From: a virus
Virus record (IMG/VR): IMGVR_UViG_3300041955_000247
Span: 12,452 to 76,451 of that record
DNA: 64,000 nucleotides
Direction: 5' to 3' (one strand)
Shown: positions 7,894 through 36,286 of the stretch, one piece after another
Layout of the letters: each line of letters opens with the position of its first letter
Numbering within the stretch: the first letter of the stretch is position 1
Position numbers and translations under genes: made by a program
The notes under the pieces: generated by a model
What the model was told of the DNA's origin: nothing
Database searches by the model: none
Seen by the model: the letters and a program-made list of their open reading frames with translations, nothing else

Positions 7894-8733
7894 ATGCAGC
7901 ACCCCTTCGAACAACTGAAGCCAGAATACACGTCATTGCTGGCCCATATGCAGCCCACGCGGGCGACGCAGATCGATCTGACGGCAAAGACACTTATCAA
8001 GTACATTGACAACAAGGATTACAAGCCCGGCTGTGATGCCACGGGCGTTCCTCAAATTGTTGCGGCTGCTTCATTTGAGCGTGAGGCCTCCTCTAATTTC
8101 AAGCTGAACCCGGCCCAAGGCTGGCCGCTTAATTCACGATCAAGGGATGTGCCCTACAACGGGCCATTCACCAATTGGACCGCTGCGCAAATAGCCGCCT
8201 ACAAAATTGATGGCTTGGACAAAATAGGTGCCCCGAACTGGTCATGGGAACAAGCTTGCTATGAGGAGGAACTGTTCAACGGTTTTGGGTACCGGCAGTA
8301 CGGTGTGCACTCACCTTACCTGTGGGCAGGCACGAACAACTACATCAAGGGTAAATTCACGTCCGATCATGGCTATGATCCGAACGAGGTGGACACTCAG
8401 CTTGGGGTGATCCCCATCATGTACCACATTGTGCAGTTACGGCCTGATTTGGCGCTGCCAATGGCCTTCCCCGGCCTCATGGGGGCCACCCCCATTGTTG
8501 CACCGATGCCAGCACCCATTGGGCTGCATGATGCTGAAGCCCTGCAAACGGCCCTCAATAAACTGGGCGCTGACCCGCAACTTACCGTGGACGGCAACTA
8601 CGGTCGTATGACCAGGAACGCTGTGCGTGACTTCCAGGCCAACATGGGCATCACGGTAGATGGGCTTGCTGGCCCAGCGACGTGGTCCTGTATCACTGAG
8701 AAGTTGGCTGATCCGGCAGGGTTTACAACTTAA
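7894..8733 (+). CDS. Endolysin (lysozyme-like domain plus C-terminal peptidoglycan-binding domain)
   Basis: REASSNF, FNGFGY, SPYLWAGTNNY..GKF..D motifs; LQTALN...VDGNYG..T..AVRDFQ...VDGLAGPATW PG-binding repeat. Confidence 0.85.
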   Translation: MQHPFEQLKPEYTSLLAHMQPTRATQIDLTAKTLIKYIDNKDYKPGCDATGVPQIVAAASFEREASSNFKLNPAQGWPLNSRSRDVPYNGPFTNWTAAQIAAYKIDGLDKIGAPNWSWEQACYEEELFNGFGYRQYGVHSPYLWAGTNNYIKGKFTSDHGYDPNEVDTQLGVIPIMYHIVQLRPDLALPMAFPGLMGATPIVAPMPAPIGLHDAEALQTALNKLGADPQLTVDGNYGRMTRNAVRDFQANMGITVDGLAGPATWSCITEKLADPAGFTT

Positions 8734-13840: not shown

Positions 13841-14823
13841 TTTAATAGTTCCTCACCCGCAGCCTTGATATTGCTTGCAACCCCTTCAGCCTTGCAGAAC
13901 GCAGCCAAGATATCTTTAGGTGTAGTAGCCACGGCTTCCTCAAGCTTGACCCGTTCACGCCGCGCCGTGGTTTTGATCTTCAGTTCTGCGCCGAATACTT
14001 CCAACTCACAATCACGGCAGGCAGCAAGTACCCGCTGCTTGATGGCTTGCCATTCCACCGCTTCCTCGCGCGCCATTTCAATGGTCAGCTTGACTTGATC
14101 GTGTGGCTTCAGTTCCTTGCTGTTCAATATATCATCAGCGTCACGAACGGTCAGTGAGAACTTGCGAGGGCAGTCAAAATGCAGGTCAATTTCACGGTCA
14201 CCCTTGAGCAGAAGCACCCTGGGGGTGAAATTGTCACCGAACCGGCAGTGATAGGGTGCCCCTACATAGGTCACAGGGCCGCAGCGCTGAGGCACATGCA
14301 CGTCCCCACTGTACACCCTCCCCGGCTTTAGTGCCTCAATGGGTGACGCGCTGAGGCCCGACAAAGTGGCACCTGTCTCAGCCCTCGAACCTGATATTGT
14401 CTGGTGAAGGGCTAGAAGCCGGGCTTTTTGGGGTAGTTGTTTGCAGGCTTCATCAAAAGTTCTTTGGTCACCACAGTGTGGGATGAAAGACACACCCAGT
14501 TCCTTGTTGTGGGTTGGGTTGACGATGAATGTGATTCCTTCAATGTGATTGAGGAACTTGAAATAGGGGCTGCTTGGGTCGGTACCATCGTGGTTCCCTC
14601 TAAGGATATAAACGGGCGGTTTCAGCCGCAAAAGTTCTTCAACAATACGGTTCACCAGCAGCGACGAATGGCGGTCCTTCCTCTCCGTAATGTCTCCTAG
14701 CAGAAGTGTTGCATCAACCGCGTGCTTTTCCTGCTGCTTTGCCAACCATCGAAATAAGCCAAAACGGTAGGCATCCCGTGGCTGGTCCGAACAATGTGTA
14801 TCGGTGGTAAAAAGCAGGTTCAT
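13831..14823 (-). CDS. SbcD/Mre11/gp47-like metallophosphoesterase nuclease
   Basis: DTH, GD, GNHD, HQ and GDVH phosphoesterase motifs; ATG at 14823 overlaps upstream stop. Confidence 0.88.
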   Translation of the reverse strand: MNLLFTTDTHCSDQPRDAYRFGLFRWLAKQQEKHAVDATLLLGDITERKDRHSSLLVNRIVEELLRLKPPVYILRGNHDGTDPSSPYFKFLNHIEGITFIVNPTHNKELGVSFIPHCGDQRTFDEACKQLPQKARLLALHQTISGSRAETGATLSGLSASPIEALKPGRVYSGDVHVPQRCGPVTYVGAPYHCRFGDNFTPRVLLLKGDREIDLHFDCPRKFSLTVRDADDILNSKELKPHDQVKLTIEMAREEAVEWQAIKQRVLAACRDCELEVFGAELKIKTTARRERVKLEEAVATTPKDILAAFCKAEGVASNIKAAGEELLKCT

Positions 14824-15290
14824 ACGCCCATCAACTTTTGCCAAACATTTGGTGCTTGGGCCGCCCCAGCGGGGGCTCCTGGGACATTCGTGAATGGTGA
14901 TTGCCATAACGCTCTCAACGCTTGCTTTTTAAATTCCGGGTCAACATACGGTGGGGGTTGCCATGTTGACCCCACGCCGTATTGGCCCACACCACCAAGT
15001 TTATAAAGGCACCGATCTGGCTCTTTTGGGTCAAGAACCTTGAGTGCACGTTTGTCGAACTTCTGCACGTGGCGCATCTTCACGAACTGCTGCTGGGCCA
15101 TGATCGCCTGGGAAGGCATCCCAAGGAACACACCTATTCGCATTGAGAACTTTGTGCCTAGCAATATGATATTGCCGGTTGGGTTCATTTCAAATGCCTC
15201 AAAGGGCAGATCACCCAGCAAATCAGTCAGGTAGTCGGTGATGGCATCATCTGACGTTTCGGGTTGTCTTAGTTTGGTGATTACGGTCAT
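14820..15290 (-). CDS. Hypothetical protein (paralogue of 15287-15679)
   Basis: Shared MR.G.F...P.Q......FVKMR and CLY...W.PP motifs. Confidence 0.65.
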   Translation of the reverse strand: MTVITKLRQPETSDDAITDYLTDLLGDLPFEAFEMNPTGNIILLGTKFSMRIGVFLGMPSQAIMAQQQFVKMRHVQKFDKRALKVLDPKEPDRCLYKLGGVGQYGVGSTWQPPPYVDPEFKKQALRALWQSPFTNVPGAPAGAAQAPNVWQKLMGV

Positions 15291-15679
15291 GGGCGTTTGC
15301 TCAGCTTCATGAGAAGTGCATTGTTCTTTAGAATAGTTTTGCTTAGTTCACCCGTGCGGTTTCGCAGGGTGGTTCTAATAATATCACCCCAATTTTCTGC
15401 AAAAGCACCAATAGGTGGACGCCATTGATAGGTGTTGGAAAGGCCCGCTGTATAAAGGCAGGCCCTGTTGTTGCTTGCGTCTAAAACATGGAGATCCTTT
15501 TTGTCATACCACGGGGCCAAACGCATCTTGACGAATTCACCATGTGTTTGGATCACCTGAGTGGGACGGTTCATGAATAGTCCAACACGCATGTAGAACC
15601 ATGTTCCACCGATGCGTAAGCGGCCAGTTTTTGTGGCTTCAAAATCCTCCCAGATGTGATCGTTCAAGTTCTCAATCAT
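15287..15679 (-). CDS. Hypothetical protein (paralogue of 14820-15290)
   Basis: ATGA coupling at both ends; shared motifs. Confidence 0.6.
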   Translation of the reverse strand: MIENLNDHIWEDFEATKTGRLRIGGTWFYMRVGLFMNRPTQVIQTHGEFVKMRLAPWYDKKDLHVLDASNNRACLYTAGLSNTYQWRPPIGAFAENWGDIIRTTLRNRTGELSKTILKNNALLMKLSKRP

Positions 15680-25851: not shown

Positions 25852-26814
25852 CTACTCCGGTGTCTTGAATATGAGCAGTCTTTCATGGATAGGAACCAGC
25901 TTCTTATTACGCCAGCTATTGGTAGAGCGGATCGCTGCTGATCCCCAGTTGCGGCTAAGTATAATATCTTGATAGAAAAGAAATCCAACCTCTTTGAAAT
26001 TCTCAATAGTGTGGCCGGGGAAATCGATCAACTCACCTTTTTTGTCACGAAAGTTTCCGACTACCATGCAAACAAAGCTGCCGGACTTCATTAGTTTTCG
26101 GTGAGCCAAAGCGGTAGAATACATTGCGAAGTTGAATTGTCCGTAGGTTCGAAGGTTGCTGAGGTCGTCGGGTCTGTCACTATACTTTTCAAGGTCGAAG
26201 TACGGCGGGCAAGACAAGGCAACATCAAATAGTCCAATTTCCTCCGCTTCCTGTAAATAGCGCCCATCACCACAGATATAACGCGCCCCTTCAAGGCTGA
26301 GTTCCTTGAGTACCCTGGTATTCTCATCTATTTGCTCCTGACGAATTTCGAAGCCCACATATTGATACCCCATAATAGTAGAGACAAGGCCGCGTGGGGG
26401 GCCACCCGCAAAAGCATCAAGTACCCGACCACCAGCATCACCACCATAACGCAACAAAATCCATTCAACCAAAGGAGCAGCGAAAACACTGTGTGTTCCA
26501 GTATAAGAGCTGTCATGATCTGCCCTCATGGTCTCTGAGCGCTCACCGTCATGGCCGGTTTCGCCGGTTAAGCGCCGCCAATCACGCACGCTGCGCTTGA
26601 TGATTTCATCCACGCGCCAGACCGAAGTGGTTGTCATGAACCACGATTTGCCCGCAGGTGGCCTTGTGTAGGCTTGCTGCGGGGTCAGCAGCAGCGGGCG
26701 TGACCGGTAAAGTGTCCTTCCCCCTGATTTAGTTTTGTAGAGCACTTTTGGGTGCCTGTTCCTTGGCTTTGTGATCCGCCTGCACCTTGGCCATGGTGGC
26801 AAGGAATGGCTCAA
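25852..26814 (-). CDS. DNA amino-methyltransferase (N4C/N6A); start uncertain
   Basis: LDAFAGG SAM-binding motif, SCPPY catalytic motif; annotated start overlaps upstream gene. Confidence 0.8.
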   Translation of the reverse strand: MSHSLPPWPRCRRITKPRNRHPKVLYKTKSGGRTLYRSRPLLLTPQQAYTRPPAGKSWFMTTTSVWRVDEIIKRSVRDWRRLTGETGHDGERSETMRADHDSSYTGTHSVFAAPLVEWILLRYGGDAGGRVLDAFAGGPPRGLVSTIMGYQYVGFEIRQEQIDENTRVLKELSLEGARYICGDGRYLQEAEEIGLFDVALSCPPYFDLEKYSDRPDDLSNLRTYGQFNFAMYSTALAHRKLMKSGSFVCMVVGNFRDKKGELIDFPGHTIENFKEVGFLFYQDIILSRNWGSAAIRSTNSWRNKKLVPIHERLLIFKTPE

Positions 26815-27803: not shown

Positions 27804-28328
27804 CTAGTTGAACAGCAGGTCATAAAGGGCGTCTTTCAGGTCAAAAGTGTCTGACAAACCCAGAATACGTCTCAGCTTCATATTCAGGTTCTCAAGCGGT
27901 TGCAGTTCTTCATTCAGCGTCATGGCAATGGCCAATTTCAGTTCTTGAGGGGCTTCATTGAGCAGCGCACTCAGGTAACCCGCATTGGTGGTGTCGCCGG
28001 TCATATTGTAACAGTAGTTGTTGACGTCCTCAGGCAGCACCGTGTAGGCGTTCTTGCGCCGTGAAATATAGCTTGATTTGTCGTTGAGGAGGTTTGTGAG
28101 GCACTTTTTGAAAAGCCCCATGAATTTGGCAGGCTCAAGAACCCGTGGGTAGCGTTCTGTCAGCTTCCAAAATAACAGGTGGGCTTCCTGGAGCAGATCA
28201 TCCTGGCCGTGCAGCCGATCACACCGCCATAGTTCGTGTCTTATGAATGACGTTGCCCAGTTCTTGATTGGCCCTTCCCAAATTGGTTCGCAATTCAACT
28301 GTACGCGCACATGTGTTGCATGCGGCAT
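27804..28328 (-). CDS. Sigma-factor-like protein
   Basis: QDDLLQEA.L.F.K...Y......F...F...L.N...D, sigma70 region 2-like. Confidence 0.55.
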   Translation of the reverse strand: MPHATHVRVQLNCEPIWEGPIKNWATSFIRHELWRCDRLHGQDDLLQEAHLLFWKLTERYPRVLEPAKFMGLFKKCLTNLLNDKSSYISRRKNAYTVLPEDVNNYCYNMTGDTTNAGYLSALLNEAPQELKLAIAMTLNEELQPLENLNMKLRRILGLSDTFDLKDALYDLLFN

Positions 28329-28545
28329 TGTAAGCCCCGTTGCTGATGATGAAGAACCCTCAATGAATTGGTAAGGCTACAATGCCGCAAGACCACGAAG
28401 CAACAGGAATAAAATTACACTCCTATGCCTTCTTGCGATTACGAGCCTATTGCCTTGTAATAGGCATACCACGTTAGATAGGTTGCGCCTTGCGTGCCTG
28501 GGCCATGCGGTTCGATAAGAGTCAATTTGAGTTTCACGGCCGCTC

Positions 28546-28692
28546 CTATTCCTCGTTGAGGTATTTGAGAAGATCGTCCACGTTATCAAAGGAGGCTTCG
28601 GGCGGCGCTGCATCAGCCTCCATAATAGAACGCACGAAAGTGGGATCGTATCCATCCCACCAACATCGCAATCGAAACCAAAGATCGCGCAC
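28546..28692 (-). CDS. Cassette gene, 48 aa hypothetical (not in ORF track)
   Basis: GTG after AGGAG; MRDLWFRLRCWWDG...LNEE; stop inside junction motif. Confidence 0.55.
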   Translation of the reverse strand: MRDLWFRLRCWWDGYDPTFVRSIMEADAAPPEASFDNVDDLLKYLNEE

Positions 28693-28709
28693 GCCGGTCT
28701 CCTATATCT

Positions 28710-29129
28710 CTACGGGGTTGCTGGTAAAATCTGTTTGACGATCCATCTTCGCATTCGGGCAAATCGCTGCTCTGGCGTTTCTTTTATATTAAAACCAAAA
28801 TCATCGTCGTTTTCAAAAACGACTTCGCGAGCCATCGCCGATGCAATCCCAAACACCGCAGACACTTTATCGGCGTCCTCATAGTCGAGGCCGAGCATAT
28901 CAATGCCGCGAGCCTTGCCTACCGCGCCTATGGCACAGACAGCGCCAGTATCAGGTTCAACAAGTTCACCGGCAATCAGTTTCTTTTCCGGTAACGCATC
29001 GAGCGCCGCAAGCATTTCCTTTAGGAAGGCTTGACCACGCCGACCTTTGATCGCGCTGGCGACCGCACCACGGTAAAGGTAGCCAGAATTATCCTCACCA
29101 TAATCATCGCTGTAGCCGCTGCGGCTCAT
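28710..29129 (-). CDS. Cassette gene, phage hypothetical protein
   Basis: MSRSGYSDD...RGAVASAIKGRRGQAFL; bounded by motifs. Confidence 0.7.
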   Translation of the reverse strand: MSRSGYSDDYGEDNSGYLYRGAVASAIKGRRGQAFLKEMLAALDALPEKKLIAGELVEPDTGAVCAIGAVGKARGIDMLGLDYEDADKVSAVFGIASAMAREVVFENDDDFGFNIKETPEQRFARMRRWIVKQILPATP

Positions 29130-29138
29130 GCTGGCTTC

Positions 29139-29456
29139 CTAATTCTCTTGGCCTGATTGTTGAACAATCGGCGTCGTAGGCACGCTGCACATCCCCCCGC
29201 CGCCAGTATGCTTAACGAAGAACTCAAGATGATCTGGCGAGCCTTCATCAAACACAATATCAAAGCCACACTCCCACATGCCGTCGCGTATTCGAGGCTC
29301 GACAAACTTTTTGAAACGTCCCTTGCGACCGTTGCTTAGAGTAAACTCTGTGCCGAACGGCAATCGCGCCCATATTTCTCGGATGACTTCTGGCATTTCA
29401 CCGTATAGTCCCGGCAAGTGTTCATCGAGGAAGTCTTGTGCCTCGTCCCGATTCAT
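29139..29456 (-). CDS. Cassette gene, hypothetical
   Basis: ATG at 29456 after ATAGGAACCACC; stop in motif. Confidence 0.6.
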   Translation of the reverse strand: MNRDEAQDFLDEHLPGLYGEMPEVIREIWARLPFGTEFTLSNGRKGRFKKFVEPRIRDGMWECGFDIVFDEGSPDHLEFFVKHTGGGGMCSVPTTPIVQQSGQEN

Positions 29457-29496
29457 GGTGGTTCCTATCATGCTTATCCGGTTTAGACACACAGCC

Positions 29497-29778
29497 CTAC
29501 ATCTTGTGTTCGAGTTTTTGTCGAGCAATCGCGGCCTGATCTTCGGCAACAATCCGCGCGTAGTTTGCGGTTTTGGCTTCATCGTCCGCCTTGCGCCGGG
29601 CCGCAAAGCCATCAAGAGCGCGCTGGAACGCCTGCCTTGGCGTCAGCCCCTGCTTAAAAAGCGGATACCAGTGCGATGTGTAGATAGTGAACTCACCGCG
29701 CTCGTAGCCAAATTCGCCTTGAATTACGTCCTCGTCGAGGGTCTGAATCCATTTTCTAAATTGTTTGCTCTGGATCAT
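29497..29778 (-). CDS. Passenger gene, hypothetical
   Basis: GGGGAG RBS; inside TIR element. Confidence 0.6.
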   Translation of the reverse strand: MIQSKQFRKWIQTLDEDVIQGEFGYERGEFTIYTSHWYPLFKQGLTPRQAFQRALDGFAARRKADDEAKTANYARIVAEDQAAIARQKLEHKM

Positions 29779-29793
29779 GGTTTCTCTCCCCGA

Positions 29794-30048
29794 CTAGATG
29801 ATCATCCGCAGCGGGATTGCATCGACGGTCGGACGCGGGTCCGCTTGCCGTTTCAGATCGCGCTCGAACTCGGCCGTCAATTCGTCAATATCCGGGTCGG
29901 ATTTTGGAATTTCCGGTGCAATTCTCGTGATGAAGCACTGCACCGGAATGCCGCCATCGGTCTCGCCCTGCCAAACACGCGCCGGAACGTCCCGGCCGCC
30001 GACTACGAGCGTCACGATCTTGCTGGTGCTCTCGATTCTGATCTTCAT
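29794..30048 (-). CDS. Passenger gene, hypothetical
   Basis: GAGG RBS; VPARVWQGET..GIPV. Confidence 0.65.
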   Translation of the reverse strand: MKIRIESTSKIVTLVVGGRDVPARVWQGETDGGIPVQCFITRIAPEIPKSDPDIDELTAEFERDLKRQADPRPTVDAIPLRMII

Positions 30049-30110
30049 TTGCCGCCTCTATATCTAGTAGGTCTCAGCGTTTGTGTGTGGCAACCGGATA
30101 AGCATGGTTC

Positions 30111-30302
30111 CTATTTTGGCAAGCGTATTAACTTGCGTGCGTTGGGCAGCATATTGTTATCATAATAAAGCAGCCCGGTCATGCCGTCGTCCCATCTGAC
30201 GAGAACGCAATAGTCGTCAGCGCGCTCGACTACACCGTGAGATGTGGCGACCACAACATCGGGCTGCTCAACCCGATCACCGACCTTTAGATGCGCCTTC
30301 AT
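30111..30302 (-). CDS. Cassette gene, small SH3/KOW-like hypothetical
   Basis: MKAHLKVGDRV...VRWDDG; starts after AGGAG, stop in motif. Confidence 0.6.
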   Translation of the reverse strand: MKAHLKVGDRVEQPDVVVATSHGVVERADDYCVLVRWDDGMTGLLYYDNNMLPNARKLIRLPK

Positions 30303-30310
30303 GACCGCTC

Positions 30311-30517
30311 CTATTTTGCTAATGCCGTTCGCGGCGAAAGTTTCTGTTTGACGGCACTCCAACGCACACGCCGCCGCGACAGTTCATTCTCTATCATTTT
30401 TAGGTTGCCGTAGATAATATCAGTCGGCATTCCACAGTCGCGGCGGCGCTTGAAATAGATGTTGATACGCTCCTGCAAATGGAGCAATCGCTCCGTATCT
30501 ATTTCAGCCACGCGCAC
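30311..30517 (-). CDS. Cassette gene, hypothetical
   Basis: Bounded by motifs; ends LAK*. Confidence 0.5.
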   Translation of the reverse strand: MRVAEIDTERLLHLQERINIYFKRRRDCGMPTDIIYGNLKMIENELSRRRVRWSAVKQKLSPRTALAK

Positions 30518-30528
30518 GCGAAAAACTC

Positions 30529-30783
30529 CTATACCTTCAGGCTGATTGCATCCGAAAAGAAAGTCTCGGCTTTTGTTCGCAACCCAGTATGGTGATCCAT
30601 CATCTTAGCGCCGCTGATTTTGTATTCGGCAAATGCGGTTTTTACCTCCTGCTCAGAGAGGCCGAGTGCGCACTGAATATCGAACACAACGCACCGCAAG
30701 TGACCGAGGCGCCGCAGTGCGCGTAGGTATTCGTTGATAGCCGTAGCTATCTCTCTAGATGATGGCCGAGGAACGCTGGACAC
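30529..30783 (-). CDS. Cassette gene, hypothetical
   Basis: Bounded by motifs. Confidence 0.55.
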   Translation of the reverse strand: MSSVPRPSSREIATAINEYLRALRRLGHLRCVVFDIQCALGLSEQEVKTAFAEYKISGAKMMDHHTGLRTKAETFFSDAISLKV

Positions 30784-30864
30784 GTTTGGCTCCTATTTTG
30801 CTAATGCCGTTCGCGGTCATGCACCCAACGGCCCTTGCGATCATTTGTTCACGCAAGCAGTCTC

Positions 30865-31122
30865 CTATTTTGACTTTGGCGGTTTAGGCAAAGGCATCCA
30901 ATGTGTCATGCCCACCCAATTAGGTTCTTCATCGCCATCACATAAATGCCACTCGCAGAGACAGCTACACCAGAACATGACAACATAATCAGAACGGGGC
31001 TTATCGCCCTTGGCTGGCTTCCCGTATCCCAAACGGGGCTTATCGCCCTTGGCTGGCTTCCCGTATCCCAAAATGCTGCGTCCGTCTTTCGGCGCAGTTT
31101 TGATGGATTGCCACGCGCTCAT
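30865..31122 (-). CDS. Cassette gene, DUF551-like protein with internal duplication
   Basis: WQSIKTAPKDG...THWMPLP.PP. Confidence 0.75.
   Translation of the reverse strand: MSAWQSIKTAPKDGRSILGYGKPAKGDKPRLGYGKPAKGDKPRSDYVVMFWCSCLCEWHLCDGDEEPNWVGMTHWMPLPKPPKSK
30993..31070. repeat. Perfect 39-bp tandem duplication (2 copies)
   Basis: AACGGGGCTTATCGCCCTTGGCTGGCTTCCCGTATCCCA x2, encoding LGYGKPAKGDKPR. Confidence 0.95.
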
Positions 31123-31130
31123 GGCCGCTC

Positions 31131-31379
31131 CTATTCCTCGTCGGGCTTATTGACGACATTGTAACCAGCCGCGTTCGATTTGCCATCTTCGTGCATGAAC
31201 CAATACGCAGACATCAAGCCGCCTGTGGTGGACTCGTCAATGCCGAGGCGATGAATTTGACGAGTAGGAAAAGAGCCATCAGCGCGTGGTCCCCATTGCT
31301 TCCAGCCAGCGAAATTTGTCTCAACAAGAACACACGATTCACCGTTCTCAAACTGAATTGGCTTGTTCCAATCAATCAC
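31131..31379 (-). CDS. Cassette gene, hypothetical
   Basis: MIDWNKPIQ; bounded by motifs. Confidence 0.6.
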   Translation of the reverse strand: MIDWNKPIQFENGESCVLVETNFAGWKQWGPRADGSFPTRQIHRLGIDESTTGGLMSAYWFMHEDGKSNAAGYNVVNKPDEE

Positions 31380-31390
31380 GCTACCCGCTC

Positions 31391-31564
31391 CTATTTTGAC
31401 TTTGGTTTACCGTTGACAGCTTCTATTGCAAATCGCCGAAGGGCATCTGCTGGACAAGCCGTGGCTCGATGTATTCGCCTTAGCTCACGTTCGTAGTAGC
31501 GCGCAACGCGGCGAAATGCTTTCCAGTCCTTCGGTCCAAGTTCGACCCTCGATAATCGGGACAT
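31391..31564 (-). CDS. Cassette gene, 57 aa hypothetical (not in ORF track)
   Basis: MSRLSRVELG...KPKSK*; bounded by motifs. Confidence 0.5.
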   Translation of the reverse strand: MSRLSRVELGPKDWKAFRRVARYYERELRRIHRATACPADALRRFAIEAVNGKPKSK

Positions 31565-31573
31565 GCCGCACTC

Positions 31574-31762
31574 CTATTTTGCTAGTTCGATTTCAGCGAC
31601 GAGGCCAAGAAGGTCCCGCTCCATCGCGTCCAACTCTTTAAGCCGAGAGGCGATTTGTTTGCGCTCCGCGTCGATTTTGCCTAGGCGGCCATCCACGCAA
31701 TCGCATGACGCATAATGATGGTTCATCTTACCGCAGCTTTGGCACTTCCGGGGCAAACGCAC
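31574..31762 (-). CDS. Cassette gene, small Cys-rich protein
   Basis: CQSC...CDC; ends LAK*. Confidence 0.55.
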   Translation of the reverse strand: MRLPRKCQSCGKMNHHYASCDCVDGRLGKIDAERKQIASRLKELDAMERDLLGLVAEIELAK

Positions 31763-31770
31763 GGCCGCTC

Positions 31771-31983
31771 CTATTCCTTCATCGCCTGTTTGGCGTGTTG
31801 CTTACAGAACCTTTGATCCGGCCCATAGCCACGTCTGCGGCGGCACTGATGGAACAAATAAGACACTCCATCGGCAACCTCTGCAATGCAATCGCCCCAT
31901 CGCTCGGCGTGGCCGTTCGGGTTACCAGCCCATGCGCCATACCGGCGCTTGCCGTCTTTTCCGGGGTTGGGGACGAGAACCAC
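31771..31983 (-). CDS. Cassette gene, small Cys/His protein
   Basis: C..QC.R..G.GP...FCKQH. Confidence 0.6.
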   Translation of the reverse strand: MVLVPNPGKDGKRRYGAWAGNPNGHAERWGDCIAEVADGVSYLFHQCRRRRGYGPDQRFCKQHAKQAMKE

Positions 31984-31992
31984 ACGAGTCTC

Positions 31993-32610
31993 CTATATCT
32001 CTTTCCGCTTCCTGTCCGCCGCGCGCTTGCGCACGAATCGGCCTTTCCCGACCTGCTTCCAGTGGCCGTACACACTGGCGGTCGAAACCCCCAGCTTCTC
32101 GGCCACCTTGGGGCCGGTCATGCCGCCGTTTAGAAGCTCGCCCACGCGCTTAATTCTGTCGGGTGTCATGTACACTTTCGGCCCCCAACTCTTGTCCTTG
32201 CGGCGCGCTCGTAGCGCGGCAATGCCCGCAGAGGTTCGCTGCGCGATGATCTGGCGCTCGAACTCGGCAACAAGGCCTAAAACACCAAGCACAAGTTTCC
32301 CCGATACAGTCCCGAAGTCGAAGTTTTCTTGGAGCGAGCGAAAATACGCGCCTTTGGCGTAAATTGCGTCGAGGCGAGCGTAAAGCTGCCGCATAGACCG
32401 CGCCAGCCGGTCAAGCCGCCACACAACGAAAGTATCGCCTTCGCGTAAATCCTTGATGGCGTAATCCAGCGCCGGGCGCTTAGCGGATGCCCCGGATACC
32501 TTTTCAACGTGCAGATTGTCCGGCTTGACCCCCGCCGCCTTGAGGGCGTCGGTTTGCAGGTCAAGCGATTGATCTTCGGTCGAGACGCGGGCATAGCCGA
32601 CAAGTGCCAT
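31993..32610 (-). CDS. Serine recombinase (resolvase/invertase family, C-terminal HTH)
   Basis: GYARVST.DQ catalytic Ser, VVWRLDRLARS, AEFER..I..RT..G, C-terminal HTH VAEKLGVSTASVY. Confidence 0.95.
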   Translation of the reverse strand: MALVGYARVSTEDQSLDLQTDALKAAGVKPDNLHVEKVSGASAKRPALDYAIKDLREGDTFVVWRLDRLARSMRQLYARLDAIYAKGAYFRSLQENFDFGTVSGKLVLGVLGLVAEFERQIIAQRTSAGIAALRARRKDKSWGPKVYMTPDRIKRVGELLNGGMTGPKVAEKLGVSTASVYGHWKQVGKGRFVRKRAADRKRKEI

Positions 32611-32636
32611 TTCCTGTACCTAAGCAGATTGGCAGC

Positions 32637-32666
32637 ATACTATATGGGACTTGACAACCTGTCAAG
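32637..32666 (-). promoter_or_regulatory. Sigma70-type promoter for recombinase within palindrome CTTGACA-ACC-TGTCAAG (back-to-back -35 boxes)
   Basis: Minus strand TTGACA-17 nt-TAGTAT; plus-strand TTGACA at 32651 faces right arm. Confidence 0.6.
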
Positions 32667-32706
32667 ACCGTGATTTGATTAAAAGACAGAATGGAGATTC
32701 AGGCCG

Positions 32707-33003
32707 ATGCCATGCTATCAGCCCAATGGAACGCCACTGACTGACCGAGAGCGTGAAGTGTTGGTCATTCTGATGGAAGAATGCGCCGAGGTCATTCAGG
32801 CAGCGAGCAAGCTGATCCGGTTTGGCAAAGAGACCCGTCCCGATGATTTGCATTTGCCGAATAGCGAAGTTCTCGGCATCGAGATTGGCGATCTAAAATG
32901 TATGATTGACAATGTGTTGTTCGAGGGGATCATCAGCCAAGAACACTTGACGCTCGGCGCGAAACGCAAGCAAGCTCGGCTTGCTCAGTATATGCAGACG
33001 TAA
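32707..33003 (+). CDS. Cassette gene, MazG-like nucleotide pyrophosphohydrolase
   Basis: EECAEVIQAASK..RFG...EIGDL. Confidence 0.7.
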   Translation: MPCYQPNGTPLTDREREVLVILMEECAEVIQAASKLIRFGKETRPDDLHLPNSEVLGIEIGDLKCMIDNVLFEGIISQEHLTLGAKRKQARLAQYMQT

Positions 33004-33020
33004 ATTGAAGGAATAGGCCG

Positions 33021-33344
33021 ATGGTTCAGACGCGCGATTTTCCCACTGCCGTTATCGCATCAATTTCGACCGGCATATTGCTCTGTGACTTTGGCAAGAT
33101 GCAGGAAGCGGCCGAGTATCTCATGGGGCACCCGATCTGGACGCATCATTTCGCTGACAAAACTCTTACTTTGGAAATGAAACGAACGATTGCCGAGCAA
33201 TGTCCTGGTATGCCGATGGAGATTGATGGTGTGACGAAGGACAACTATCTGGAAAAACTAGCCGTCATCGAAGCTGAAATCGGCAAGACCGTTCGCATCC
33301 GTAAGGGCCGCGGCCTCACCGCGATGTTGCCGGCCGGTGGTTGA
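33021..33344 (+). CDS. Cassette gene, hypothetical
   Basis: ATG directly after AATAGGCCG. Confidence 0.65.
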   Translation: MVQTRDFPTAVIASISTGILLCDFGKMQEAAEYLMGHPIWTHHFADKTLTLEMKRTIAEQCPGMPMEIDGVTKDNYLEKLAVIEAEIGKTVRIRKGRGLTAMLPAGG

Positions 33345-33474
33345 GAACTGCGCCGTCGATGATTGTCGCAAGCGCGAATATATCGCGGAGATCGAGTTGC
33401 TTCGCGCGGAGATCGAGGCGCTTAAACTTGAAATCAAGATGTACGAACAGAGGTTTGCCGAGTTGGCAAAATAG
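33337..33474 (+). CDS. Cassette gene, 45 aa coiled coil (not in ORF track)
   Basis: GTG start; ends RFAELAK* inside repeat. Confidence 0.4.
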   Translation: MVENCAVDDCRKREYIAEIELLRAEIEALKLEIKMYEQRFAELAK

Positions 33475-33478
33475 GCCG

Positions 33479-33778
33479 ATGACAGCGGATTTGGGTAAAG
33501 AGGCGTTTTATGCGTCCTTGGCGATTATTGGCTTCGTTCTGGGAATGCTCGGCATTCATTGTCATCGATGGAACTCCTTACTACGAGTAGCCGCAATCTT
33601 TTTTGGCTTATTCCTCTGTGCCTTTGGCCTCGGTTCTACTTTGATCGTGCGTTCTGAGCGCGTCTCCGCCGCCCCCGGGATCATAATCGCCCTTTCGCCT
33701 TTGGCCCTGACCGATCCAAGGCTTTTGAAACCCATAGAAAACGGGAGGCTTACGAGGTTTGCCGAGTTGGCAAAATAG
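33479..33778 (+). CDS. Cassette gene, membrane protein
   Basis: ATG after AATAGGCCG, two TM helices, ends RFAELAK*. Confidence 0.55.
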   Translation: MTADLGKEAFYASLAIIGFVLGMLGIHCHRWNSLLRVAAIFFGLFLCAFGLGSTLIVRSERVSAAPGIIIALSPLALTDPRLLKPIENGRLTRFAELAK

Positions 33779-34093
33779 CCCGCTAATACGGAATTAACAT
33801 GGATCAACGCACACGAACACTGTTGCTCGCGATTTACGGCACCAAGGCTGCGGCTGGAGTAATTGTGTTAGCCGTGCTGCTTATCTATCACTTCTGGGGC
33901 TGATGGTGATGCGCGGAACGATAATCGTTGCCTCCGTTGTATTTGGGGGGGTCCTCGGTGGGCAACAGCAACCATTTGCGGCTGGGCTGTTCTTTGGTCC
34001 GGTCTGTTTGCCTGCTACGATTTGGCGCGTTAATGACAGATTAACAGGAACAAGGAATAGGCCGCTAATGCGTCGTTAGTCGGGATTTGCACG

Positions 34094-34381
34094 ATGATCG
34101 AAATGGTTCCTAGGCCCCACATCGTTCGCCGCACTTGTGGCGGTTACTTGGCCGTTGCATCAAAGCGAGCCCGGTTCCGAATTGGCGTCACGGCGGAAAC
34201 AGAGGCGGCGGCCGAACATAAGTTCTGGTTCACCTACGTCCGATGGTGCGAACTGGTCCCACTGGAAGCTGTCGGCGAGTGCACCCAATTAACAGCGCCT
34301 CATCTTCGTGGTGAGCGTGAGCCTATCGAGAGGTTGGCTTGGGGGTGCACTCACCAGCAGCGTCAAACAAAATCGGTCTAA
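34094..34381 (+). CDS. Cassette gene, hypothetical
   Basis: ORF between last two right-arm motifs. Confidence 0.45.
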   Translation: MIEMVPRPHIVRRTCGGYLAVASKRARFRIGVTAETEAAAEHKFWFTYVRWCELVPLEAVGECTQLTAPHLRGEREPIERLAWGCTHQQRQTKSV

Positions 34382-34413
34382 CACGGGGTTAGCAGAAACA
34401 AGGAATAGGCCGG

Positions 34414-35358
34414 TTATAATTGCAAGACTTGCTTTGCAGTAAGCAGGCCGGGGTCTTTCACCCCTGACGGCAACATAGCAATTTGCACATTGGCCCCCGG
34501 CAGGCTGTCGCAAAGGCTCAGCGCACTACCTAAAGCTTCGCTGTCAAACAGCACCCGCACCTTGTCATACTTTGGAATGAGCGCTTGCAGGGCAGCAAGT
34601 TGCCCCGCCGTGGGGTTAACCCCAAAAGTGCAGGTGGCCCGATGCCCATGTGGTGCCCCGTAGTAATCCACCTTGATGGCGTCAAACGGCCCCTCTGTCA
34701 CAAACAGCGTCTCACCGCCGTGACTGAGATCATGCTCATTGAACACCACGGTTTTGATAGCCGCCGACGAACTGAGATAGCGCGGTGCGTGAGTGGTAGG
34801 TTGAATGGCGCGGGCTGTCCAACCCGCCAGTTCGCCGTTGCTTTGCTGAATGGGTATGATGATCCGGTCCTTCCACCTGCCATGCTGGCAGCACAACAAG
34901 TCGTATTGCTCAATCAGGGTGCTAACATCATCAAAGCCCCTGCCCTCAAGGTACCGCCAAAAACGCCCTGTAAGCCCCGTGGGCTTGATTTGCCTAAATT
35001 CAGGGGGTAGCTGGCTGGGCAATTCATCACGCTGTACGGGCTGCGCTGAGCCACCCAGGGCCATTATGGCCTGCTCAAGGGTTTCAGGGTCGGCGGCGCT
35101 GTGCTGCCCCACAATCAACCGGGCTTGGCTGAATGAACAGCTCAGCAGGGCCGCCACAAGGCTGTAGGGCTTGCGCCCAGCGTGCTTGGCGTTGCGCCAG
35201 CAGCCAAAGGCGTCCTTGGTCAGTGAGATGGAAAGATGTTCGCTTGGATCATCAGGACCGCACCAGGGGCACTTTAGGGCAAGCTGGCCCTTTCGGACGT
35301 TAGGCCCACTGGTGACATAATCAATATGATTGGCTTCTAGGAACGCTACCCAGTCCAT
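34414..35358 (-). CDS. DNA primase (zinc finger plus TOPRIM)
   Basis: CPWC...H...CWR, RIIIP, EGPFD, D...PSGVKDPG. Confidence 0.85.
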   Translation of the reverse strand: MDWVAFLEANHIDYVTSGPNVRKGQLALKCPWCGPDDPSEHLSISLTKDAFGCWRNAKHAGRKPYSLVAALLSCSFSQARLIVGQHSAADPETLEQAIMALGGSAQPVQRDELPSQLPPEFRQIKPTGLTGRFWRYLEGRGFDDVSTLIEQYDLLCCQHGRWKDRIIIPIQQSNGELAGWTARAIQPTTHAPRYLSSSAAIKTVVFNEHDLSHGGETLFVTEGPFDAIKVDYYGAPHGHRATCTFGVNPTAGQLAALQALIPKYDKVRVLFDSEALGSALSLCDSLPGANVQIAMLPSGVKDPGLLTAKQVLQL

Positions 35359-35741
35359 CAGTATGGTATCTCGTTGACAGGTGCTACATCAAATTCAACA
35401 AAGCTGGTGCGTTGATTGGCCCGCTGTTCTTTCTTGGTAGCCCATTGGCAATTGTCCTTAAAGTAACCGAGATTGCCGTCTTTGCGGTCCAAAGTCATTT
35501 CCCTGCAAGGTCGCTCACCCATGTCCTCGAGGAAGTTCCTGAAGGCATCAGGCGAACCGCGCCGCCAGCGTTCGCAGACCTCAATGCCACGGCCACCATA
35601 CAAATGGTACCACTTGTGGGTGCTTTGATAGCAACGCGAATTCATGGATTCCCACGACAAGTAAGTGGGTGATTTCTTGACCTTCCATTTGCCTTTGATG
35701 TTGCGGGTGCGTGACGTGTGGCCGTGGCGCTTCCCTGTCAT
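35358..35741 (-). CDS. HNH-type endonuclease
   Basis: YGGRGIEVCERW, F..DMGERP, TLDR.D...Y..DNCQWAT..EQ..N. Confidence 0.85.
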   Translation of the reverse strand: MTGKRHGHTSRTRNIKGKWKVKKSPTYLSWESMNSRCYQSTHKWYHLYGGRGIEVCERWRRGSPDAFRNFLEDMGERPCREMTLDRKDGNLGYFKDNCQWATKKEQRANQRTSFVEFDVAPVNEIPY

Positions 35742-36286
35742 TTATAGGCCCTCATGGCATGATGGTTACAATACGTGTGGTCGGTCCATGCACCACAAAA
35801 GAAAAAGTCTTTGTCACCCACGTCTCCAACGGCCCATCGGCATGTGTGGCCGTTGAGTTGCAGCAGTGTAAGCCGCTGTTCCTGAGGAATGGCTTTATCG
35901 TATTCTGAGGGTTTGATATGAATGGGTTCGGTGGGGGTGCTGTCGGGTATGTCAACGGCAAGGGCGATACGGAGGCGTCGCTTCTTGGTGAAATGGGTGT
36001 AGGCTTGAATAACCTTTTGCGGATTGGGCTGAACTGGTCTGACTGTTGCACCTTTGGCCCGATGCCGGGGGCGGCCTCCTGGGCTGGCCTTGTTCTTGAA
36101 AATATGTAAACGGTGCATTTTGCCTATGACGGCATTACGGGTGGCAAACCCTAGTTTGTCGGCTATTGCACTGGCTGATAATCCAGCCGCTGCATATTCT
36201 CTAAGCTCAGCCTCTTTCTTTTTGTCCCATCCTGGGTTCTGGTTCTGTTTGTACTTTTGTTCGGACGGTGTATCCAAATATGTCAC
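35738..36286 (-). CDS. gcrA: GcrA-family cell-cycle regulator
   Basis: W......L......GLSAS.IA..LG..TRNAVIGK.HRL; LL.L...TCRW..GD....DF.FCG...YC..H...AY. Confidence 0.88.
   Translation of the reverse strand: MTYLDTPSEQKYKQNQNPGWDKKKEAELREYAAAGLSASAIADKLGFATRNAVIGKMHRLHIFKNKASPGGRPRHRAKGATVRPVQPNPQKVIQAYTHFTKKRRLRIALAVDIPDSTPTEPIHIKPSEYDKAIPQEQRLTLLQLNGHTCRWAVGDVGDKDFFFCGAWTDHTYCNHHAMRAYK

Follow-up and report, generated by a model that had tools for sequence, protein, structure and literature searches.

Translational joints between small genes mark places of gene exchange in a candidate hypervariable region of an uncultured phage

Between a DNA primase gene and a gene for a 174-aa protein, the window analyzed here (64,000 nucleotides of viral DNA) carries about 6 kb of small genes arranged in two divergent arms (Table 1). 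We regard this block, with moderate confidence, as accessory and hypervariable DNA in the genome of an uncultured phage. The phage probably has an alphaproteobacterial host, because a GcrA gene adjoins the block. An earlier sequence-only reading had taken the block to be extra DNA, and this is borne out by the cassette-free relatives L004/L031, L029, and L030, in which the primase directly precedes the homologue of the 174-aa gene. On the minus strand of the window, the primase stop TAA is followed by CCGG and then by the block. The motif ATTCCTGTTGC on the opposite flank (28409-28399) lies directly 3' of the primase stop in L030, and at this left edge a contig from metagenome X2 that spans the flank stops at 28416. 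Two distinct components may well make up the block, namely, a minus-strand array of tiny genes and an accessory module that bears a recombinase gene.

Table 1. Features of the block and its flanking genes (window coordinates)
Feature	Position	Strand	Basis or remark
174-aa flanking phage gene	27804..28328	-	phrog_35491; 46% identical to L004:11020-11550
Outermost ATAGGAG copy, no gene behind; left edge of the variable region	28420..28426	-	
Array of about 15 tiny genes	28420..31989	-	ATAGGAG, 4-8 nt, then ATG/GTG
Non-autonomous IS1595-family derivative with flanking target duplication	29461..30114	.	
Perfect 39-nt tandem duplication in 85-aa DUF551-like gene	30993..31070	.	DUF551 match
First TAGGAG joint, containing the recombinase stop codon	31990..31996	-	
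Small serine recombinase, 205 aa	31993..32610	-	
Divergent promoter region, back-to-back -35 hexamers	32611..32706	.	
Plus-strand GGCC-type arm of small genes	32707..34381	+	ORFs, family matches, joints
MazG-like 98-aa gene	32707-33003	+	
DUF7736 gene	33021-33344	+	
45-aa gene	33337-33474	+	
99-aa membrane protein gene	33479-33778	+	
Small ORFs	33800-34079	+	
95-aa gene	34094-34381	+	
GGCC-type joints within the arm	33013, 33471, 33772, 34057	+	
Outermost GGCC-type joint copy ATAGGCCGG, no gene behind; right-hand boundary of the probable insertion	34405..34413	+	
DNA primase, flanking phage gene	34414..35358	-	phrog_47 E=4.9e-30; relatives 65-98% identical

The minus-strand arm is built on the repeat ATAGGAG, a compact translational joint that merges the stop codon TAG with the Shine-Dalgarno sequence GGAG ahead of the next start codon. 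The repeated motifs that had been described in both arms from sequence alone were confirmed: CTCCTAT occurs 17 times on both strands of the window against 3.2 +/- 2.0 in shuffles, and all 12 plus-strand copies fall inside 28420-31996. Joints of the stop-GGAG style are found elsewhere in the same phage; 12 of the approximately 15 joints in the block read ATAGGAG, and the remaining minus-strand matches in the window comprise 3 TAGGAG versus 11 TGA/TAA-GGAG. The array, the products of which mostly lack a known family in family searches, is co-directional with the primase and the 174-aa gene (28.4-32.0 kb) and could quite plausibly be part of the phage's own primase-direction operon. It is an ordinary TAGGAG array of a kind common in recombinase-less phages, as 22 of 23 viral contigs with matches to the pattern carry no recombinase in the DNA examined and several of these hold clusters of 5 to 8 co-oriented copies. 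The tandem duplication in the DUF551-like gene is missing in the X2 and X3 contigs.

Within the array lies a passenger with a history of its own. The IS1595-family derivative (29469-30106) is 638 bp long, has 25-nt terminal inverted repeats, and landed exactly inside a gene joint. Like other insertion sequences of this family and their non-autonomous derivatives, it combines terminal inverted repeats with an 8-bp target duplication; an autonomous copy at L016:11414-13146 shares its ends and has an 8-bp duplication together with a DDE_Tnp_IS1595 transposase (PF12762/PF12760), whereas in the window copy a transposase is missing and two small passenger genes are present. Many contigs with differing flanks, from four metagenomes, end exactly at 29468/29469 and 30106. 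This element bears on the sites with T in first position that had been counted among the left-arm motifs: the TTCCTAT copies do exist, at 29462 and 30108, but they are the two copies of the target duplication GTTCCTAT and therefore count as one original site.

The plus-strand arm uses a second type of joint, GGAATAGGCC, which is composed of GGA-A-TAG-GCC and is followed after 1 to 5 nt by ATG. The motif ATAGGCCG occurs six times versus 1.3 expected, with four copies at 33013, 33471, 34057, and 34405 (within 33013-34412), and a fifth right-arm copy at 33772 reads ATAGCCCG. Four complete phage genomes contain 14 matches to the GGCC-type joint, every one of them within the operon that diverges from the recombinase gene, and the joint is enriched in 16 to 19 loci of the recombinase clade, down to about 50% identity, with no such enrichment beside 27 more distant resolvases. 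In a comparison of about 19 phage loci, this joint type is confined to the operon divergent from this recombinase clade, a link that is new here, while the cargo of these arms is unrelated from locus to locus. Three family members (L015, L017, and L081) have almost no GGCC-type array. Single plus-strand cassettes in the window are flanked by direct repeats of 25 to 29 nt (D5 and D9), and the source sample contains coexisting cassette variants in this arm.

Information content around the joints is limited to positions -5 to +6 relative to TAG, with the start codon 1 to 9 nt after the motif. It could therefore be argued that the motifs are translation signals only, with no role in recombination, and that breakpoints fall there for want of other intergenic DNA. 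The fixed spacing to start codons, the TGA and TAA variants, and the wide distribution of TAGGAG arrays are in keeping with this idea, as are the related AGG-type ribosome-binding sites of the recombinase gene and the first divergent-arm gene, neither of which has an upstream ORF. We nevertheless consider it unlikely, given that unrelated cassettes share identical tails of 17 to 29 nt, that the joints within the block are homogenized compared with those elsewhere in the window, and that only one operon uses the GGCC type. In addition, orphan copies with no gene behind them, at 28420, 34057, and 34405 in the window and at 3864 in L016, are not explained by translation.

The recombinase has an N-terminal catalytic domain (PF00239, E=2.9e-38) and a C-terminal helix-turn-helix (weak HTH_7 match), is related to phrog_125 "DNA invertase" (E=8.8e-56), and has Gin invertase as its best solved relative (E=3e-33). 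Residues R8, S10, D67, R68, and R71 do not vary among 29 homologues. Its gene is the sole conserved gene of the modules, and nucleotide homology between these is bounded by its stop codon on one side and by a point about 100 nt ahead of its start on the other. The syntenic relative G001, whose genome is complete, lacks the gene, unrelated phage backbones carry it, and in cultured phages no family member exceeds 44% identity. As the gene is almost never found in bacterial genomes, an identity as prophage integrase was rejected. The recombinase stop abuts GGAG in eight of nine family loci, and over the nine loci GGAG is constant at this joint while the stop varies (TAGGAG, TGAGGAG, and TAAGGAG). 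Upstream of the gene, -35 hexamers stand back to back (TTGACA at 32651-32656 and TGTCAA at 32660-32665), the best sigma-70-like match being TTGACA-17-TAGTAT on the minus strand, and the layout TTGAC(A/T)-17-TAnnnn is shared with about 15 family loci. The palindrome in this region, with its odd center and variable spacing, is more readily read as two -35 boxes than as a crossover site.

The affinity of the enzyme to Gin and Hin, together with the mutually inverted AATAGG cores of the two arms, might bring to mind a shufflon-like or Min-like multiple-inversion switch. As the sites are inversely oriented, the enzyme would flip the center between any left-arm and any right-arm site and so re-pair distal cassettes with the two promoters. 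We find such a switch very improbable, since flips would mix joint types, whereas the arms of 19 loci are nearly pure (50:6 versus 5:44), no strand change occurs at any joint listed among the contigs of four metagenomes, and neither 26-bp dyad sites, gix/hix-like sites, nor an invertible segment were found.

Additional insight is gained when the window is compared with L032, a phage about 96-99% identical to it. In that phage, CCGGAG comes after the primase stop and serves as the ribosome-binding site for co-directional genes; the two sequences part exactly behind TAACCGG (window 34409/34410). Within the 2.3 kb examined, L032 has a TAGGAG array but neither the recombinase nor the plus-strand arm. 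With a left arm of the common TAGGAG type and a divergence that falls at TAACCGG, the true insertion is probably only the recombinase and the plus-strand arm (about 31990-34412), with the first TAGGAG joint as its probable left-hand boundary, and this module occupies what is the CCGGAG ribosome-binding site in the sister phage. Contigs agree with these limits: an X2 contig diverges exactly at 31990, an X2 contig diverges after 34412, and one from X4 begins at 34408. The 139-aa gene of the array (28710-29129) matches L032 at 99%, with similarity breaking at the joint on either side, and all three breakpoints between the window and L032 lie inside joints. Breakpoints on motifs are at 28699, about 29146, and 31990, with contig ends at 28416 and 34408 and a loose end after 34412. 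At joints of both types, genes are exchanged between phages, acquired, and lost.

The sequence-only reading had gone further and proposed an element delimited by the outermost pair of sites (28420/34405), excised by crossing over at a shared CC. It is partly supported. The formal products were correctly derived (...ATAGG-CC-TAT... and ...ACT-CC-GGTTATAA, the latter giving TAA CCGGAG on the minus strand), and the CTCCGGTTATAATTG half of the predicted empty site is matched in L032. The outermost-pair unit itself does not hold, as its left arm is a generic array, such as is present in L032 without a recombinase in the 2.3 kb covered. The palindromic circle junction ATAGGCCTAT is an arithmetic consequence of both arms carrying outward-pointing AATAGG; no locus has such a site, and no circle or junction sequence was seen in the contigs and loci searched.

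A narrower role for the enzyme is conceivable, and we view it as a tentative alternative. The recombinase and plus-strand arm might form a mobile unit with IS607-like logic, smaller than the one first proposed, that moves through a circle and enters a GG/CC overlap within GGAG ribosome-binding sites; additionally or alternatively, the locus might be an integron-like platform in which promoter-less cassettes are inserted and excised at a TAGG|CC core, the dinucleotide after TAGG (AG versus CC) keeping the arms orthogonal. Such mobility would account for the exclusive link between GGCC-type arrays and recombinase clade despite wholly replaced cargo, for the phylogenetic distribution and sharp homology limits of the recombinase gene, and for the orphan terminal joints. 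The catalytic residues of the enzyme are invariant, no other substrate is visible, and its gene is divergent from the array, as in integrons. The breakpoint with L032 is exactly TAACC-GG|, and GG stands at both ends of the 2.4-kb unit, as for IS607 (PMC4058570). Against this, the conserved core of about 11 nt lacks symmetry, and all of it can be read as ribosome-binding site plus stop codon. Well-studied small serine recombinases cross over where two half-sites, inverted relative to each other, flank a central dinucleotide (PMC4058570), and no dyad-symmetric, inverted-repeat full site is present in any locus; the supposed CC overlap is displaced by one base from the dyad axis of ATAGG|CCTAT, and a centered GC overlap would not fit the left-arm sites (TC). 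Joint-precise swaps also occur in recombinase-less TAGGAG arrays, the long flanking repeats suggest homology-driven events, three family members almost lack the array, and the domain order is resolvase-like.

We favor, with the weight evenly balanced for the explanation as a whole, a two-component region in which joints are both translational signals and swap points for passive recombination. The accessory module would consist of a Gin/resolvase-type recombinase, a divergent promoter pair, and the plus-strand operon. As genes abut, viable phages would arise only from exchange at joints, which are the sole sequence common to unrelated genes and are often extended by the identical tails. We take short-homology or illegitimate recombination followed by selection to be the most likely mechanism of swapping. 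Identical repeats that end at joints flank single window cassettes (28, 25, 18, and 29 nt) and recur in L020 and L018, a sequence signature that points to homology-driven exchange. Also in favor, L013 and L020 share a cassette at 97% identity, from 3 nt after one TAG to the next TAG, while their recombinase genes are only about 71% identical in nucleotide sequence. Some observations count against this explanation. At the 5' edge of the L013/L020 cassette the contexts have only 4 to 6 nt in common, a very short stretch for homologous recombination. A search of the 76%-complete record for annealing proteins of the ERF, RecT, or Rad52 type gave none. The GGCC-type joint does not represent a translation style in general use, and its exclusive link with the recombinase is not well explained by a purely passive model.

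Comparison with known systems places these features in context. Gin/Hin/Cin invertases and gamma-delta/Tn3 resolvases are the closest sequence relatives of the enzyme and share its two-domain build and catalytic residues, although the invertases act on 26-bp gix/hix-like dyad sites and an invertible segment that have no counterpart here. Integrons comprise the tyrosine recombinase IntI, attI, the promoter Pc, and promoter-less cassettes bounded by attC. The locus resembles them in its conserved recombinase gene divergent from an array of short, promoter-less, unrelated cassettes of mostly unknown function, in expression from a promoter beside that gene, and in precise-ended exchange between platforms; it differs in having a serine recombinase with putative catalysis at joints, no consistent folded attC-like hairpin, a joint that doubles as ribosome-binding site at the 5' side of each gene, and a location in phages. 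IS607-family elements encode a serine recombinase, are proposed to pass through a circular intermediate, use GG as the overlap dinucleotide, and have minimal specificity for their targets (Boocock & Rice 2013, PMC4058570). The unit here likewise pairs a serine recombinase with GG on both sides, inside GGAG, but IS607 TnpA has the inverted order with an N-terminal DNA-binding domain, and the unit here has no TnpB, identified subterminal repeat arrays, or observed circle.

The joint-swapping logic itself appears, by analogy, to match that described for the promoter-early stem-loop (PeSL) regulatory cassettes that T4-type phages carry in their hyperplastic regions (Arbiol et al. 2010, PMC2839356; PMC4122927), where direct repeats are able to loop out mini-circles. 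The PeSL repeat is a promoter/terminator of 50 to 60 nt, whereas the repeat here is a translational joint of about 11 nt with optional 17- to 29-nt tails, and here two joint types are kept apart on divergent operons, one of them tied to a recombinase clade. In both systems, small non-essential genes are separated by short regulatory sequences that recur, single genes are bracketed by direct repeats, and near-identical phages differ by insertions, deletions, and replacements located at the repeats. In L020, a stem-loop even accompanies the joint repeat.

The window belongs to a 76-kb IMG/VR virus record, in which 6 kb of small genes lie between the primase and a 174-aa gene. Close to the GcrA-like gene are genes resembling a DNA methylase and a beta clamp, and these three genes together suggest that the phage has an alphaproteobacterial host. 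A recombinase 62% identical to that of the window is carried on a Hyphomicrobium MAG contig, and megablast with the 11-kb region returned no match among GenBank phages. The 127-aa gene adjoining the primase (35358-35741) is without a Pfam family, has look-alikes at non-syntenic positions in two other viral loci (L004:7223-7384 and 15100-15348; L020:2696-2977), and may be a small mobile gene. In the window, a methyltransferase-like gene (25852-26814) matches L004:12518-14605 in two pieces about 1.1 kb apart, within a single 679-aa ORF; an intein or inserted domain on the L004 side could account for the split.

Features of the small-gene block, its surroundings, and the repeats and elements compared with it
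Feature	Position	Strand	Remarks
DnaB-like helicase, SNF2 helicase, GcrA-like regulator	around block	minus	replication genes
GcrA-like cell-cycle regulator	35738-36286 and neighbours		PF07750, E=4.7e-28
Primase	34414-35358	minus	flanks block
174-aa gene	27804-28328	minus	other flank of block
About 15 small genes	28.4-32.0 kb	minus	headed by serine recombinase
Small serine recombinase, 205 aa	31993-32610	minus	PF00239 (E=2.9e-38) and C-terminal HTH
96-bp region with back-to-back -35 hexamers	between the two small-gene sets		
About 7 small genes	32707-34381	plus	
Cassette-flanking repeats, window	30307/30789; 30862/31388; 33450/33754; 34041/34389		28 nt; 18 nt; 25 nt; 29 nt at 86%
Identical 25-nt repeats around single cassettes	L020:7647-7678 and 8241-8272; L018:13747-13778 and 13971-14002		end in ATAGGAG
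IS1595-family derivative	29469-30106 (with duplication 29461-30114)		25-nt terminal inverted repeats; inserted in gene joint
Autonomous relative of this element	L016:11414-13146		same ends, 8-bp duplication, IS1595-type transposase (PF12762 E=3.5e-31, PF12760)

In viral loci whose primases are 65-70% identical to that of the window (L004/L031, L029, and L030), the homologue of the 174-aa gene comes immediately after the primase, and relative to these more distant relatives the block is an insertion. The complete 95-kb genome behind L004 contains no resolvase-family gene. The most telling comparison is with a 2.3-kb metagenome contig from a near-identical sister phage (L032), which has a primase end 96-98% identical to that of the window. 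In L032, CCGGAG comes right after the primase stop, then ATTAAA, ATG, and small genes running in the same direction, all with AAATAGGAG in front of them, and the 2.3 kb contain neither the recombinase nor the plus-strand arm. The two sequences are identical through TAACCGG, after which the window continues with CCTATT..., which is the outermost right-arm joint in reverse complement, and L032 with AGATTA... They rejoin at a 139-aa gene (28710-29129), 99% identical, where similarity starts inside the upstream joint and stops right after the downstream ATAGGAG.

The sequence-only reading took the outermost motif pair, 28420 and 34405, as the ends of an element inserted into a GGAG ribosome-binding site. 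The target and the boundary hold, as L032 carries CCGGAG where the window diverges after TAACCGG, and the half-site CTCCGGTTATAATTG predicted for the empty site is found in nature, in L032. The outermost pair is not established as the unit. The comparison with L032 identifies the left arm as the phage's own kind of gene string, and the extra unit is most likely the recombinase with the plus-strand arm, about 31990-34412. Breaks in metagenome contigs agree with these seams: a contig of set X2 departs from the window at precisely 31990, one contig stops at 28416, another begins at 34408, and a loose end follows 34412. The originally predicted empty site, relaxed to both flanks with a gap of 0-30 nt, had no match in viral contigs, and a second empty site sought in relatives of the L014 backbone matched only the L014 record itself.

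The motif counts behind that reading were confirmed: CTCCTAT is present in 17 copies against 3.2 expected, with 12 of 12 plus-strand copies within 28420-31996, and ATAGGCCG has six copies, four of them at 33013-34412. In gene orientation, all left-arm copies read (A)ATAGGAG, then 4-8 nt, then ATG or GTG, with the TAG usually being the stop of the preceding gene, and right-arm copies read GGAATAGGCC, then 1-5 nt, then ATG. The position of the stop codon and the fixed distance to start codons define these copies as gene joints; three copies (28420, 34057, and 34405) have no gene behind them. In the AG-type joint of the left arm, a stop codon is fused to a Shine-Dalgarno sequence, and in the GGCC-type joint of the right arm, a Shine-Dalgarno sequence (GGA) sits in the last codons, with the stop next and a GCC spacer between it and the start codon. 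In logos of 70 AG-type and 71 GGCC-type joints, information is confined to positions -5 to +6 around TAG, about 11 nt, and a second core is absent. The stop codon at the recombinase end varies (TAG, TGA, TAA) with GGAG constant, in the divergent arm an ordinary GGAG/GGGAG site and the same GC-rich spacer usually precede the first gene, and the recombinase leader often has ATAGGG 6-8 nt upstream of ATG. All of this fits translation signals. No promoter-like matches were found at joints, and stop-plus-GGAG joints are present elsewhere in the same phage too.

Unrelated small proteins (30311-30517, 31574-31762, 33337-33474, and 33479-33778) share the C terminus ..LAK, with ..KSK and ..EE/KE found elsewhere, because the conserved joint tail extends into the last codons; two ELAK tails differ by synonymous changes only. 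A 14-nt string, CTAACACGGGGTTA, at 34378-34391 (plus strand) in the tail of the last plus-strand cassette equals primase 3' ends in two 67-70% identical relatives (L027:2829 and L028:2166), and a similar string recurs in an X2 contig just past 34412. A 16-mer of the left-arm joint gave seven matches in viral contigs, which is at chance level and without arrays. A "Russian-doll" pairing of site sub-families was discarded, as only two to three families, in the order C, A on both sides, are too little to exceed chance.

The pair of TTCCTAT "sites" represents a single joint that was duplicated, namely as the 8-bp target duplication GTTCCTAT of a 638-bp IS1595-family derivative with passenger genes of 93 aa (DUF5419-like) and 84 aa. 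The inverted repeats, 8-bp duplication, and DDE_Tnp_IS1595 transposase of the family are all found, the transposase only in the L016 copy, and the window copy is therefore non-autonomous. The element ends are multi-copy: in four metagenomes, many contigs with differing flanks end exactly at both. A perfect 39-nt tandem duplication at 30993-31070 lies within an 85-aa DUF551-like gene, and one copy is missing in contigs from two other metagenomes.

In the N-terminal catalytic domain of the recombinase, the nucleophile Ser10 and Arg8, Asp67, Arg68, and Arg71 are invariant in 29 homologues, and its C-terminal helix-turn-helix matches HTH_7 at residues 150-181 (E=0.0019, under the curated cut-off). 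With a catalytic domain, an HTH, and a length within about 180-210 aa, it is a bona fide small serine recombinase. Metagenomes hold thousands of close homologues (>5000 proteins in the clade), and recombinases 86-92% identical to that of the window occur on long contigs. Cultured phages have no close homologue (best identity 44%), and among 185,579 species genomes only two MAG contigs carry one, which rules out a role as prophage integrase.

The comparison covered 19 viral loci whose recombinases are 50-86% identical. None of them has a cargo gene in common with the window, homology at nucleotide level extends no further than the recombinase ORF and up to 100 nt of promoter, and the backbones are unrelated; in two complete genomes the module is situated near a genome end. 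Downstream of the recombinase, these loci carry TAGGAG in the same orientation as the gene (50 forward, 2 reverse); the divergent operon holds TAG(G/C)CC, 44 times in arm orientation and 8 times the other way, and the cross-combinations number 6 and 5; more distant resolvases (≤48% identity, 27 loci) have background counts only. All 14 matches to A(A/T)TAG(G/C)CC-N1-6-ATG in four complete genomes fall in the operon divergent from the recombinase, and a recombinase-free relative has two scattered matches. Viral contigs commonly carry TAGGAG arrays with no recombinase within the sequence retrieved. On this distribution with and without the recombinase, the GGCC-type joint is module-specific and the AG-type joint generic. 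The conserved TTGACA...TGTCAA palindrome upstream of the recombinase has an odd or variable spacer, and its halves lie exactly 17 nt from -10-like hexamers; it therefore reads as two divergent -35 boxes, and a hix- or res-type site was rejected as the leading reading on account of the odd centre and variable spacing.

That joints serve as translation signals and nothing else is improbable. Breakpoints lie at joints in every resolvable case. All three breakpoints between the window and L032 are in joints. Two viral loci with recombinase genes about 71% identical (L013 and L020) have in common a 235-nt cassette, 97% identical, over a stretch from 3 nt past one TAG up to the next TAG; in the partly similar case of L085 and L086, identity extends 16 nt beyond the stop. 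Often, single cassettes lie between long identical repeats that end at a joint, and the L020 repeat follows or includes a 9-bp stem-loop. Homologous exchange or looping-out leaves such repeats, as for the PeSL repeats of T4-type phages (PMC2839356). As the genes abut, any viable exchange must fall in a joint, and the apparent precision of the breakpoints is therefore partly forced. We put about even confidence in passive shuffling guided by these seams, with the recombinase's own role left aside. ERF, RecT, and Rad52 were not found in the record, which is 76% complete. Contig joints from 32706 to 33453, from 32706 to 34388, and from 34065/34096 to 3438x, with sides of only 20-35 nt and inserts not resolved, are signs of cassette polymorphism only.

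Movement of the module and/or its cassettes driven by the recombinase is a lesser but still substantial possibility. A circle joining 34405-34412 to 31990-31996 is then predicted to contain GGAATAGGCCTATATC, and the module-free form to read primase-TAACCGGAG-next gene. The exclusive, clade-wide link of the GGCC-type array with the recombinase argues for such movement, as do the intact active site and the existence of orphan joints, whereas arrays without the enzyme also swap precisely at joints and long repeats favour homology-driven exchange. The 2.4-kb unit has GG on either side and lies in a GGAG target, which recalls IS607 (PMC4058570), but the core is short and asymmetric, and a dyad full site is absent from all loci. 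A CC overlap lies one base off the axis of ATAGG/CCTAT, and a centred GC overlap mismatches the left-arm TC, which counts against recombinase action; neither the palindrome argument of the sequence-only reading nor a role for the enzyme is established. No circle junction was found by sequence search of the loci or in assembled contigs. The contigs of four runs, none of which joins 284xx to 344xx and among whose listed joints none changes strand, are Logan contigs, from which rare variants are dropped, and are hence uninformative on circles. Tentatively, an uncultured-phage-only clade of small, resolvase-order serine recombinases may run a cassette platform, a divergently transcribed array of mini-genes lacking promoters of their own, with TAGG/CC joints as half-site-type crossover points; the platform as a whole would hop from phage to phage into GGAG sites via a GG/CC overlap. 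It could be speculated, with the same reserve, that this platform would be a functional serine-recombinase counterpart of the integron in viruses.

Turnover of anti-defence and host-takeover genes takes place in the accessory-gene regions of phages, and clean exchange of single genes is understood for few phage groups only. The region shows translation joints doubling as seams of gene exchange, one seam type being inherited with a conserved, catalytically intact recombinase, of a clade abundant in phages, across unrelated phage backbones. Should the enzyme prove to act on the seams, the system would represent a new class of gene capture and might provide a tool directed at very short sites; otherwise, the region still offers a clean natural case of mosaicism guided by seams.

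Compared with known systems, the recombinase appears to have none of the sites of invertase, resolvase, or IS607 systems. Its closest solved relative is Gin (alignment over residues 3-181). Gin/Hin invertases need a pair of 26-bp dyad crossover sites, inverted relative to each other, on either side of an invertible segment close to the gene. Here, AAACCNNGGTTT-like sites do not exceed chance, no TAGGCCTA-type full site was found, and the window has no inverted repeats suited to inversion apart from the IS ends; an inversion switch is very unlikely, the lack of gix/hix-like sites and of an invertible segment also leaving recombinase-driven movement without a competing substrate. Resolvases act at a multi-subsite res region upstream, with dyads around a 2-bp centre; upstream of the gene in the window lies the promoter palindrome described above. 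In the IS607 transposase, the DNA-binding domain is N-terminal and the catalytic domain C-terminal (PMC4058570); the window enzyme has the opposite order, which also speaks against recombinase-driven movement of the IS607 kind. An IS607 element joins its target through a GG overlap and has a circular intermediate. At 31990-34412, GG flanks the unit at both ends, and L032 reads GGAG in the corresponding place; GG is, however, part of every ribosome-binding site. The integron enzyme IntI is a tyrosine recombinase, and the 76-kb record has no PF00589 match; unlike at attC sites, joint conservation is short and single-cored, and only some sequences upstream of joints, read by eye from joint lists, could form a hairpin. 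To our knowledge, a module-specific second joint type with a fixed tie to an uncultured-phage recombinase clade has not been described in the literature. As in PeSL-mediated shuffling, near-identical phages differ by indels and replacements located at repeated intergenic cassettes, and the L020 stem-loop repeat resembles the PeSL cassettes of T4-type phages; a PeSL repeat is, however, a sigma-70 promoter with a terminator stem-loop, and the joints here are stop, Shine-Dalgarno, and spacer. The region is a member of neither system, working most like the PeSL-mediated modular shuffling of T4-type phages and being laid out most like an integron.
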